Part shown: piece after piece, positions 37,376-59,628 of the stretch
How the letters are laid out: every line of letters starts with the position of its first letter
How positions within the stretch are numbered: the stretch's first letter is position 1
Assembly: GCA_964016885.1 (NCBI GenBank)
Contig: OZ024742.1
Span: forward strand, 21,018,001 to 21,082,000
Length of the DNA: 64,000 nucleotides
DNA from: Eledone cirrhosa
Taxonomy: Eukaryota
Direction: 5' to 3'
The notes under the pieces: generated by a model
Database searches by the model: none
What the model was told of the DNA's origin: nothing
What the model saw: the letters and a program-made list of their open reading frames with translations, nothing else
Position numbers and translations under genes: made by a program

Positions 37376-37795
37376 TAGTGTGGACGCTCGTGAGAATGAT
37401 TACTGAATGCCATAACAAGAACTGGTTTAACTTTTGATTATGTCTGATAACGCTCTGAGTAGACATGGGGAAAGCAAGAGTATCAAAACTAAAACCTGGA
37501 CTTTATACACTCACAGAAACACACACATACACTTTCTCAGGCACACAAATATATATATATATATATATATATATATATATATATATATATATATATATAT
37601 ATATATATATATATATATATATTTGTGTGCCTGAGAAAGTGTATGTGTGTGTTTCTGTGAGTGTATAAAGTCCAGGTTTTAGTTTTGATACTCTTGCTTT
37701 CCCCATGTCTACTCAGAGCGTTATCAGACATAATCAAAAGTTAAACCAGTTCTTGTTATGGCATTCAGTAATCATTCTCACGAGCGTCCACACTA
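37376..37795. repeat. Perfect 420-bp palindrome centred on (TA)n
   Basis: The arms are exact reverse complements by eye. Identical peptides are predicted at 37434+/37537- and 37465+/37503-. Confidence 0.95.
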
Positions 37796-37947
37796 ACCGG
37801 GTATGTATATACATATATATATTTGTATGTATAGTATATTTGGCAATATACCGTATGTTTAATTAAAAATATTTAGAAGACCCTACGCTATCACCTATAA
37901 AGTAGTGACCATGTCACTTACTTCTTTTCCGCGATAGAAGGCAGAGA

Positions 37948-37989
37948 AGCTAACAGTCTGTTTCACGCTGTTTGACGATCATCAGAGCT
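37948..37989 (-). ncRNA. Type I hammerhead-like motif
   Basis: Minus strand: agct CTGATGA tcgtcaaacagcgt GAAAC AGACT GTT agct. Stem II is weak. Confidence 0.55.
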
Positions 37990-38039
37990 ACGGACTGCCC
38001 TCTTCCGCCGAAAATTATAGAAACTGGATTCTTATAGAA

Positions 38040-38151
38040 TTCTAGAAATAGCCGTCGAAACGGCTTGAGCTCTGCCGTCGGGTTCATACTTTTTCCTATT
38101 TCCCACTCTACTACCCTAAGTATTGAGTACTCCTTACCACATTGCCTCTGT
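38040..38151 (+). mobile_element. Family D 3' end carrying the 3' half of a hammerhead
   Basis: gccgtc GAAA CGGC ttgagctct GCCG TC ggg, then the family D tail. Confidence 0.7.
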
Positions 38152-38401
38152 TATATATATATATATATATATTTCGTTTCTGAATTTGTTTAGCAAGATT
38201 CTTTATCTGAAAACGTGTGTTGAAACCGATATTGTTATACTTTGGGAGGGTCATGTTGACAATAAGAAACACACGCACCAGTTGCTTTCACTACAATTTA
38301 TTATAAATTAAATTTATAAATTTAAGAATTTATAAATTTCCGGTTGGTTGGTTCCAGAAACAGACGATTGTTCATATATTGTCAAAGTTCTTTCGTCACA
38401 C

Positions 38402-55416: not shown

Positions 55417-56259
55417 TATATATATATATATATATAGAGAGAGAGAGAGAGAGAGATATGTATATATATATATATATATATATATATATATATATATATA
55501 TATATTATATTATATATATATATATATATATATATATATATTATATATATACATATATATATATATATACATGTATATTCTTCTAATAGTACAACTAACC
55601 GTGTGGATTATATTCTAGAAACTAATTATATTTACCGTTATTTTCACTTAGCTGCGTTTAACTAATACCCTACAGGACACACAAACTTAGGTTAGGAATA
55701 ACATACTTTCAAACTAAGTATTACATGCTTTGTTTAATGCCCAAGCTTTTCATTTTTTTAAAACCTTTCTTCGCTAAGAGAATTTAATTCTTCCAAAATT
55801 CTGATCGGTATTTTTCAATCATATACCAGAGTGTTTTCCCCTTTCACGAAATAACATGGATTTACTGATACAAATCGATTGTTATCCAGTTAAACAATAT
55901 TGGTTTTTAACATCCTTCGCTATACAGAATATTACATATTGTTCAACGAATCCATTATATTATTTTTCAAATGGGATTGAGTTGAAAAGCGTAACTGCTG
56001 GAATTTCAACGACTTCATTTATTTAAGGACAATGACAAATGTTTAAGTCTAAAATTATGCATAAAACAACATCCTAAAATAACATATTGTATTATTTTAA
56101 TAGTCAACCATAATGCCTACAAAAATGTATCTTCCCCCGGAAAAATACAACCGTTCAAACGATATCCTTATAAGGAAACTTGCTTAATATACCCACTCTT
56201 AGTATAATTTATTCTCATTAAGGTACAAGACTAACGAGTGTGACAATGGAGAATGTTGA

Positions 56260-57160
56260 TTAAATCTACCCCAGTACTTCACTGGTATTTTCTTTCATCG
56301 CACTCGGAAGGATGAAAGGCCAAATCAACATAGGTGTGATTTGATATCAGAATGTAAAGTGCCGGTAATCCTGCCTATGTATTATTGTTTCTAATATTGG
56401 CACAGTACCGGTAATTTAGGGGAAAGGGAACACCGATTAAACTGAACCCATTAAGTTACTCGTACTTTGTTTTTTCCGCACTGGAAGGAAATAAGTCAAA
56501 GTTAACCCCGGCGGAATTTGAAATCAGAACATAAAGACCCCGAACAAATACGCATTTCTCTACCGGGACTAATGTTTCTAGTTTAGTCAGTTGGTCAACA
56601 ATTTAGAGGGGTGGGGAAAGTCGATTAAATTGACTCCAGTGTGACACGCGTACTTTATTTAATGCACCTCAGGAACATGTAGGGCAAAGTTGACCTCAGC
56701 GGAATTTGAATTCAGAACATAAAGAGACTGAGTAAATAATTGTTTCTACTTTAGGCACAAGGCCAGCAATTACCCAGTGCATTACTGGTACTTTATTTTA
56801 TCGACCCCGTAAGGATGAAAGGCAAAGTCAACCTCGGCGGGATTTGAACTCAGATCGTAAAGCGACGTAACTATGCTGGAAAGCATGGCGTCCGACCCTC
56901 TACTTATACTGCCAACCCACGCCCTTCAGCGACTGAGTAAATAATGCTACATAGATGTCCATCCGGTCTGAATATTATGGTTTCTGATTTAGGCACAATG
57001 CCAGCAATTTTGGGGATGAGAAAGTCGATTATATCGATCCAGTATATGAGTGGTACATTATTTTATCGACCCCGTAAGGATGAAAGGCAAAGTTAACATC
57101 GGCGGGATTTGAACTCAAAATGTAAAGGGCTGTAAATCTATGCCGCGAATCCACCGCCCT
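56260..57160 (-). mobile_element. Cluster of five co-oriented tRNA-SINE copies of differing divergence
   Basis: Core repeated near 56300, 56480, 56670, 56800 and 57070. The 56738-56925 copy interrupts another and is flanked by gactgagtaaataat repeats. Confidence 0.85.
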
Positions 57161-59199
57161 CGTTCTGAATATAATGAAACCCATTTTATCTATATCGTCT
57201 CTGAACACATTCGCTATAAAATTGATAACCAATTCTTTTGCCAATTTATAACAATCGTATCATCAAAATGACACTGACACTATATACTTTCCAATACTCA
57301 AATATATCAAAATAGTATTTCTGGACATGCAAATATATCAATTGACGCCACCGATATAATAGCTGATATTTAATGTACTTGTGACCCTAGCTGAGTTGGT
57401 TCAATGTCCCATTCATAAGAGAAATTCGTTTATAAGACAGAATAATTGTTGCATTAAGACAAACCATTTCTCAGATATTGGAATATTGGTTTGGCTACGT
57501 AACATAAAGACAACTATATAATATTGAATACATCAAGGTACACATAAGCACTCACTCACACACAGACACACATAGACACACACACATATTATGTTATATA
57601 TATGTATATATATACAGTGATAAAAGGAGATAGATAGATAGATAGATAGATAGATAGAGAAAGAGTATATGCATATAAATGAGTCTATTCTCTAATCATT
57701 TTTATATGATTTGTGTTATTCGTTCTGGCTCTCTACACTCTGAGTTCAAATCCCGCCGTGGTCAAATTTTCAAGGTCGATAAAAAATACCAGTCCATTAC
57801 TGGTGCAGTTTCCTCTTCTATATCTATACCCCCCCTCCCCGCACCTCGTCACTCGTTTTTCTGGTCAATAATAGACGGGACACCTACATGCAGAAATGTA
57901 CAACAAGCACATTAAGCTTTGTCCGTCACAGCCCCACAACCCTAAATGCTAGATCCGAACTCAACCCAACCTGCTGTGTTTGCCATAAACTCTATTTCTG
58001 CAATAAACTCTATTTTCTGCTAAACAATTTAAAATGAGACACACCCACGGATTATTAAAAGAAAGCAGTGACGCCCTTGATAACGCAGACAGCCACATCA
58101 TTAATTTCATGTCCAATGTATGGCTGCTTCTAAAGACGAATCATCCCATAGTCCCTGTCAAATACACCGGAAGATATCGCTAGCACTTTGAACCACGTGA
58201 TTACCTCTAAAAGAGAATAAGCTTCTAATATGTGTGGAAAATAAAGAACATCATCGCCATCACTACCAAACACCTGTTAAGCTAGAATCAAAAATACCTT
58301 GTGATCTTGTCAAAACATTAGATACCATCCGCATTCAAGTGGATAGCTCTGAAGCAATTACCTGTGATATCTAATATCTTCTAATTTCTAAAGTAAATTT
58401 ATCTGCTGTCATTCTTTGTCATGTGTTGGCATGACTAAAGAAGAGTATTTCCTTCGGCAAGTATCTTCTAAGTATCTTTCTTATAGTTCAGTTAGACTCT
58501 TTCAACTTTCAAGAGGTTACTTTAAAAGGAGCTGGGAAATCAGCACAATCTACAAAGCAAGATAAACAGAATTTGTTTTGTTTTGTTAGGTGTGTTATAT
58601 TTTCAATTCAATACAATCACTGTTGTTTCCTCTATCAGTGATGTTCGGTGAATTTTCAGCAGTCTAATTAAATGTAAACCAAAGATGTTTCAAATAAAGC
58701 CAACATTATAATGTAAATAATATAACAGATCTATATTTAGGTTTCGATACGACGAGTCACATTGTATTTACAATATAACAGACGTGTCTTGTGTGAAGTC
58801 TGTGCATAGAAAAGAAATTATAGCGAACAACAAGATCTAAAGAGTAAAATTGTTTGACAGGTGGAATAAAATATGTCTAATTACCAAGTCATGTCTGAGC
58901 CAACTAATTTCTTGTGTTAAAAAATAGTAAAATAGACTGAAAAAACAGCAAAATGTTTTCAAGATAGTTCACAGATTTTAAACGAATACAAAATTTCAGC
59001 AGTTTTATTGCCGGCTCTGTAAAGCTATCTATTGCAATATTGGGTTAAATGGGGGTAACAAAATACATTTTATGACAGCAGAGACAGTTTAATAAGTGGT
59101 ATCTTGTCTCCATATTCATCTGACGCTGAGTCATAATACTGATATATATAGTCAGACAATAATAATTGTTACTAAGGCAAATACAAATATGGAGAAAAT

Positions 59200-59390
59200 A
59201 ATGGTTTCTGATTGAGGCACAAGGACAACAATACTGAGGGAGGGTAATATCGATTAAATCGACCCCAGTGTATCACTGGTACTTTAATGTATCGACCCCG
59301 TAGGGATGAAATCAAAGTTAAACTCGATGGCATTTGAACTCAGAACATAAAGGGCCGAAGCATGTTTTCCGGCGCTCTACAGACTCTGCA
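59200..59390 (-). mobile_element. tRNA-derived SINE
   Basis: atcgaccccgtagggatgaaatcaaagttaaactcgatggcatttgaactcag. Confidence 0.8.
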
Positions 59391-59392
59391 AA

Positions 59393-59628
59393 TACATTAC
59401 CCTAAACATGAAGAGAATAATAAATGGGGACATATGTATATATATATATATATATATATATATATATATATATATATATATGTCCCCATTTATTATTCTC
59501 TTCATGTTTAGGGTAATGTAAAAAAAGACTCGAGTTGCATTTTCTATTTCATCTTTTTTCCTTATACTTTCGCTCGTGTAGGACACCTCCGTTTTTTTTT
59601 CATTTTATAAAAGAAACCTCACTTTCTA
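59393..59628 (+). mobile_element. 128-bp (TA)n-centred palindrome fused to the family K tail (59521-59628)
   Basis: 59393-59432 is the exact reverse complement of 59481-59520. The sequence that follows matches 26208-26317. Confidence 0.85.

Follow-up and report, generated by a model that had tools for sequence, protein, structure and literature searches.

Fold-back of a broken target end has been described at insertions of the human L1 retrotransposon. Nam et al. 2023 (PMC10191854) describe 3 + 1 somatic insertions, corresponding to 0.3% and 0.1%, in which a short inverted duplication made by fold-back, 52-220 bp long, lies upstream of the L1 target. In the model set out in the legends to Fig. 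4A, D and E of bioRxiv 10.1101/2024.12.14.628481, the reciprocal end self-anneals, undergoes DNA synthesis and is ligated to the reverse transcription (RT) end; the same source has one L1 fold-back primed by a TA/AT 2-bp homology, and it models large loops too. Here we analyze a window of 64,000 nt (C3:21,018,001-21,082,000, within a 3.0 Gb animal assembly) in which TA microsatellites are abundant and in which three inverted duplications of local DNA lie beside sequences of Penelope-like elements (PLEs).

Other systems offer partial parallels. At R2 snap-back 5' junctions (PRINT, PMC11371274), a 3' end primes extra synthesis before the 5' junction forms, and the template is either cDNA or nearby target DNA. 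For PLEs, self-priming has been proposed to account for palindromic head-to-head junctions (PMC8557442, PMC3846280), and the resolution of the second end during integration is declared open by PMC8557442 and PMC11167929. TA repeats are reported to break without any retroelement and to be repaired with templated duplications (PMC13645644; PMC12972899); the available text of these two reports describes neither TA-centred flank palindromes nor retroelement capture.

On balance, we think it probable that the inverted copies of local DNA arose by fold-back repair at broken (TA)n and that PLE cDNA was joined to the copy in some of them. That TA-centred fold-back duplications are a real, countable class is well supported. 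The form coupled to a retroelement exists but is a minority, and its mechanism is as known from L1. The original prediction had assigned all three cases in the window a single layout, namely flank, (TA)n, inverted flank, 5'-truncated PLE tail and (TA)n. The three inverted pairs are real: complementarity of the arms was confirmed, and the arms are local DNA, unique in cases 1 and 3, rather than parts of an element consensus, barring short old repeat pieces. The common layout holds for case 2 only, since in case 1 the arm faces the 3' side of a repeat piece and case 3 has no TA centre. Likewise, the arms meet at a TA run without other spacer in cases 1 and 2 but not in case 3. The features of case 2 are as follows.

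59393-59431, plus strand: original arm, with an old repeat resembling a short interspersed nuclear element (SINE) crossing its outer end
59432-59481, unstranded: centre, a (TA) run with one interruption
59482-59520, minus strand: copied arm, 39/39 complementary to the left arm
59520-59628, plus strand: K tail with its 5' truncation where the arm stops, then (TA)36

The 5' truncation of the K tail falls exactly at 59520, other K copies extend further upstream, and copy and tail overlap by 1 nt at their junction. The old SINE-like repeat (8 hits) extends past the outer limit of the left arm, which marks this arm as the original and the K-fused arm as the copy. The region gives one predicted hairpin of -59.5 kcal/mol, as expected of any perfect palindrome.

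In the mechanism that we propose, a break within (TA)n would leave an end that anneals to itself. Synthesis from the self-paired end would copy the adjoining flank, and the extended end would afterwards be joined to the opposite side of the break. That other end would usually consist of (TA)n alone, and the product would then read flank-(TA)-copy-(TA). Where the break was an intermediate of PLE integration, the other end would carry a 5'-truncated cDNA, as in case 2 and in L176, a locus sampled elsewhere in the genome. The break, the fold-back, the polymerase and the DNA-cutting agent are what we infer; the copying of local DNA, its polarity in cases 2 and 3, the positions of the junctions and the TA at the copy end are observed.

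To place these cases in the genome at large, we used a random sample of 159 evenly spaced stretches of 10 kb, 1.59 Mb in total; L-numbers are labels of sampled loci, whether random or tail-selected. Palindrome centres were found at 9/859 TA blocks. The controls gave 0/265 for other dinucleotide blocks, 1/762 for other simple blocks, 0/859 for mirror controls and 3/4282 for shuffled flank pairs, so that TA blocks exceed all non-TA blocks (1/1027; P=0.007) and shuffled pairs (P=1e-5). Eight palindromes, drawn in part from a scan of 139 of the 159 stretches, were kept as clearly DNA-templated, which puts the estimated frequency of TA-centred fold-back duplications at about 5 per Mb (8 in 1.59 Mb); extrapolation to the genome gives approximately 6,500-30,000. 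Four others (L124, L265, L180 and L224) were left out as ambiguous, being short, low-complexity or diverged.

Five of the eight palindromes have unique arms (L125, L152, L191, L193 and L226). The element-derived arms of the remaining three share private changes with the adjacent copy (2/2 in L127, 5/5 in L176 and 1/1 in L271), and L271 also mirrors an interrupted microsatellite. These observations bear on the possibility that the arms are the ends of two elements inserted independently, in tail-to-tail orientation, at a single TA run, or the inverted pseudo-long terminal repeat (pseudo-LTR) of one element. Such arrangements do occur, both as tail-to-tail element pairs (L057, L143, the second hit in L226 and probably L141) and as the element's own inverted repeat at 886-7325 of the window. 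The shared private changes of L176, L127 and L271, the arm copy numbers of cases 1 and 3, which refute this explanation there, and the fact that the arms of the three cases are not element sequence except for short old repeat pieces make it extremely unlikely for the structures considered here. L141, L143 and the second L226 hit were left out of the set of eight as element pairs, and L129, L196 and L217 as microsatellite self-matches.

The outer end of each copy was scored as lying at a TA run (<=6 nt) or at a PLE-type 5' end, each against a matched null. It lies at a TA run in 5/8 palindromes, compared with a null of 4.7% (P about 1e-5); with the four ambiguous palindromes added, the TA-ended count is 7/12 by eye. 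Palindromes at the tail-selected loci L047 and L008/L273 also end in TA. The predicted fold-back copying of local flank at (TA)n is thus borne out by arms that are unique or share private changes and by copies that mostly end in TA. Two serial palindromes, each on a TA-rich block, lie at L191:2846-3570, as would follow if fold-back had happened more than once at the site. At L145:2097-2258, L184:983-1443, L111, L122 and L131, DNA that seems to be unique is likewise duplicated in inverted orientation, but with no pure TA centre.

Case 3 is a pair of long arms separated by a loop, with the following features.

41849-41863, unstranded: (TA)15 anchoring the B tail
41864-41985, minus strand: B tail, 5'-truncated at 41985
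41985-43747, minus strand: copied arm, an inverted copy of 48061-49814
43748-45735, plus strand: 5'-truncated family C PLE with Hydra-clade motifs, in the loop, its 3' end at a TA array
45735-46251, unstranded: interrupted TA array in the loop
46252-48060, unstranded: unduplicated flank in the loop, 1.8 kb, old repeat pieces and unique DNA
48061-49814, plus strand: original arm, with an old SINE-like repeat crossing its inner end

The inverted arms and the fusion to the B tail at 41985 are as predicted, but a spacer of 4313 bp takes the place of the TA centre and no inner arm end lies at a TA run. The arms differ by 19 substitutions and 3 indels across 1764 columns (98.3% identity), and the arm has only two full matches in the genome, i.e. 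it is unique. The old repeat (7 hits) continues past the inner boundary of the right arm, which identifies the left arm as the copy. On one side this copy meets the 5' end of B with a 1-nt overlap and on the other that of C with a 2-nt overlap, B and C both being Hydra-clade-like PLEs; the junction overlaps in cases 2 and 3 are thus just 1-2 nt. Singleton changes number 1/122 in B, which is compatible with the divergence of the arms, and 16/953 in C, which makes C appear roughly threefold older than the duplication, given equal rates and provided that its source lineage was sampled. Because B matches the age of the arms and C does not, we read B as the new cDNA. The same repair would then have involved a resected opposite end that folds through the older C to form a 4.3 kb loop, closed by the 2-nt microhomology rather than by TA self-pairing. 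Alternatively, the new cDNA could be C, having folded back to copy the neighbouring flank as in R2-type snap-back (PMC11371274).

The apparent age of C (16/953 singletons against 19 arm substitutions in ~1750) also suits another explanation, in which replication template switching or break repair made the palindromes without any PLE and the tails are older or later insertions juxtaposed by deletion or chance. The frequency of PLE-type 5' ends at copy ends, 1/8 and not significant, points the same way. In case 2 and L176, however, the copy stops exactly at the 5' truncation of the tail, the tail has the predicted orientation with its 3' end in TA, and the tail seems just as young as the arms. 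The K, D and F tails at palindromes carry no singleton changes, which is compatible with their being the same age as the identical arms. We therefore regard this explanation as unlikely and retain fold-back repair with occasional capture of cDNA.

Case 1 lies beside a pair of PLE-type pieces, M and D, with the following features.

37343-37377, unstranded: (TA)35 outside the left arm, with the 3' end of a family E hammerhead-type tail on its left
37376-37548, plus strand: left arm, unique DNA
37549-37622, unstranded: centre, pure (TA), 74 bp
37623-37795, minus strand: right arm, 173/173 complementary to the left arm
37796-37822, unstranded: gap between arm and M, 6 nt and a degenerate TA stretch
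37823-38040, minus strand: M piece, a hammerhead-bearing repeat with its core at 37961-37985 on the minus strand and its 3' side toward the arm
38041-38151, plus strand: D tail in head-to-head orientation to M, followed by (TA)21 at 38152-38172

The arm has two matches genome-wide, both of them these arms, and the left arm starts within the second TA run, at 37343-37377. The inverted arms, the hammerhead piece and the D tail are all present as predicted. Since the 3' side of M faces the arm across degenerate TA, however, the arm is not fused to a 5'-truncated tail. The side of M that faces the arm is TA-anchored; M and D stand head to head, and each outer end of this pair lies in TA. Element divergence gives conflicting signals on the age of case 1, as M differs from its distant sampled relatives at 8/100 columns but the 92 columns of D contain 0 singleton changes. 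A TA-ended palindrome next to a double-ended M-D insertion is the likely reading of case 1, although a fusion of the arm to M slightly within the 3' end of M, as at the tail-selected locus L037, may be the alternative. A copy whose end meets a TA-seated cDNA at its 5' truncation is found in case 2, in case 3 (B) and in L176, and not in case 1.

Given that TA hairpins might generate fold-back chimeras in a library, or that haplotypes might have been mis-joined inverted in case 3, we examined cases 1 and 3 in three contig sets from one sample, whose library type is not on record and which is possibly the assembled sample itself. Several arms are perfectly identical, as an artefact of this kind would have it; the reads probably come from the assembled sample, no contig record spans a whole structure, and the spacer of case 3 is without coverage in these sets. 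Against an artefact, the contig that contains the case 1 arm ends exactly at 37795 in 3/3 sets with extra depth, which fits two branches. The arm-to-B junction of case 3 is present in 3/3 sets, compared with 1/3 for the junction between arm and original flank. Some arms have also diverged, at 3/50 positions in L125 and to 94.6% identity in L273 and 98.3% in case 3. An assembly or library artefact is therefore very unlikely.

We also considered where the breaks come from. Many repeat families stop precisely at TA runs, as 363/1278 TA flanks in 139 evenly spaced random 10 kb stretches belong to recurrent, TA-anchored repeat termini. It is possible, if doubtful, that a PLE endonuclease makes nearly all of the breaks, that TA-ended palindromes are scars of abortive integration and that the folded end may prime cDNA. 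Hydra-clade PLEs target (TA)n (PMC8557442, section 11), purified PLE protein is reported to cut and extend both strands (PMC11167929), and in L037, and possibly also in case 1, an arm lies directly against a PLE-type piece on its 3' side. A known terminus lies past the outer TA run in only 2/5 random TA-ended cases, however, which is near the baseline of about 28%, and the reported breakage of TA repeats needs no retroelement. The L037 fusion and the case 1 arm near the possible start of M would be compatible with priming of cDNA from a folded end. In its boldest form, TA-targeting PLE endonucleases would cut (TA)n so frequently that integrations, whether abortive or completed, had left approximately 15,000 host-DNA palindromes in this genome, and the folded flank would prime RT on PLE RNA (L037, case 1), which we put forward only tentatively as a rather improbable account; if true, it would expose the second-end step of PLE integration.

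To see how often tails adjoin inverted copies, we walked upstream from 261 tail copies outside the window. TA was reached, directly or via another repeat piece, in 198 of these walks; 17 reached another microsatellite, 32 unique DNA and 14 the edge of the locus. Long loops like that of case 3 would be missed because many tail loci reach just 1.5 kb. Short inverted matches at unique tail junctions in L012 (18 nt) and L212 (30 and 16 nt) were judged unconvincing.

Several results weigh against fold-back repair as we propose it, and against its coupling to retroelements. A convincing local inverted copy was found at only 2/261 tail junctions (L037 and L176), and the outer end of the copy lies at a PLE-type 5' end in 1/8 palindromes (the F tail of L176; null 0.9%, P=0.07). 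When TA blocks (9/859) are compared with non-TA dinucleotide blocks alone (0/265), the difference is not significant (P=0.13), and the eight palindromes were picked by hand. The copy in L191 runs into a second palindrome, L127 rejoins unique flank without TA, the L037 arm is fused to a D piece at the short 3' end of the latter, and the case 1 arm ends within about 6 nt of a possible start of M-like sequence. No empty allele was seen; in two runs of restriction site-associated DNA sequencing (RAD-seq) from other samples, the unique arms of cases 1 and 3 are without coverage. The original prediction that a copy is joined to the 5' end of a cDNA stands for case 2 and for the independent random locus L176 but not for case 1 or most palindromes, and these frequencies do not show the retroelement-driven route to palindromes that had been suggested.

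The likeness to L1 is close in that the end without cDNA pairs with itself, is extended along the adjacent flank and is then connected to the RT end, and in that the event is rare: about 0.4% of somatic L1 insertions (4 events) in the published data, compared with 2/261 tail copies here. The two systems differ in setting and in priming. The L1 fold-backs come from somatic or cultured human cells and use 2-bp homologies, whereas those described here lie in an assembled animal genome, have a long (TA)n hairpin and Penelope-like partners, and mostly carry no cDNA. Unlike R2, in which the cDNA end is described as snapping back (PMC11371274), it is the flank end that would do so in case 2 and L176. 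PLE insertions with inverted pseudo-LTRs (PMC8557442, PMC3846280) are similar in that both ends are TA-anchored, which is the default here (198/261 tail walks), but their arms are element sequence as described there, in contrast to the host flank found here.

Reciprocal-end fold-back followed by joining to cDNA is thus already published for L1, and what is new here is the TA centre, the Penelope-like partners and an estimate of about 5 per Mb in an assembled genome. In the literature accessible to us, a part of what is published, we found no paper that describes flank palindromes with a TA centre where a PLE is joined. By analogy with what has been proposed for L1, case 2 and L176 suggest that both ends of a PLE target may be free and finished by host end-joining. 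Quite apart from PLEs, fold-backs at about 5 per Mb would steadily supply TA-rich genomes with duplicated local sequence and with DNA able to form hairpins; TA-centred fold-backs can be counted directly in any assembly.

The PLE families involved were characterized from their motifs. Other copies of family B have an upstream GIY-YIG-type open reading frame (ORF) and a CxCX5C linker. B, C and the element at 886-7325 share a C-terminal GIY-YIG-type domain after the reverse transcriptase (also RT), the CxCX5C linker and insertion in (TA)n, and CxxC and CxH motifs can be read around E and N in all three. A CxCX5C linker and CxxC/CxH motifs define the Hydra clade, which inserts in (TA)n (section 11 of PMC8557442), and by this motif definition the three would be assigned to Hydra-clade PLEs. 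Atlas look-alikes of these PLE proteins are RT/HTH_animal and GIY-YIG. Pfam gave 0 families in 5 window ORFs and 2 relative ORFs, a PDB sequence search gave nothing informative, and an Rfam scan of the window gave 0 matches.

Families K, D, M and F are putative PLE-type tails, so classed by structure only. K and D tails have a fixed 3' end in TA, a variable 5' end and a head-to-head copy minus the last 40-50 nt. Hammerhead cores are present in M, F and one K locus and were not found in the two D loci scanned. No clearly contiguous endonuclease was seen upstream of K, M or F, where many loci reach just 1.5 kb, and an endonuclease without long TA between lies upstream of 1/88 D hits. The small TA-bounded head-to-head form is the commonest D family insertion form genome-wide. 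The hammerhead-bearing M family also occurs as tandem units of ~330 bp at L089, L109 and L065, like a non-LTR retrozyme.

The 886-7325 element is a 5'-truncated Hydra-clade-like PLE with an open frame at 2231-3361 and TA at both ends. Its pseudo-LTR of 1.4 kb is rich in microsatellites and is accompanied by an inverted copy that is 99.5% identical in its unique part and is without the last 140 nt. As a fourth case it was rejected, its inverted repeat being its own pseudo-LTR, and L274 and L275 were rejected as fold-back palindromes on the same ground. A PLE at 38173-39885 has a CCHH-type endonuclease, a sense hammerhead core, an inverted terminal copy and TA at both ends. Small TA-bounded head-to-head double tails or hairpins lie at 9488-9703, 16432-16640, 26016-26315, 35150-35304, 46252-46412, 46462-46972, 50027-50363 and 59781-60082.

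Other rearrangements were also noticed. Pieces of the repeat at 51449-51993 are found again, some direct and some inverted, at 54587-55410, the two sites being separated by a broken reverse transcriptase fragment of long interspersed nuclear element (LINE) type on the minus strand at 52702-54133; the region 51438-55410 looks like a complex local rearrangement. At 40605-41190, two SINE-like copies with a shared flank lie in inverted order, 91% identical and with no TA centre. Elsewhere in the genome, near-identical element copies lie ~44 kb apart at L085-L087 (C2) and ~27-28 kb apart at L248-L251 (C4), as tandem segmental repeats.

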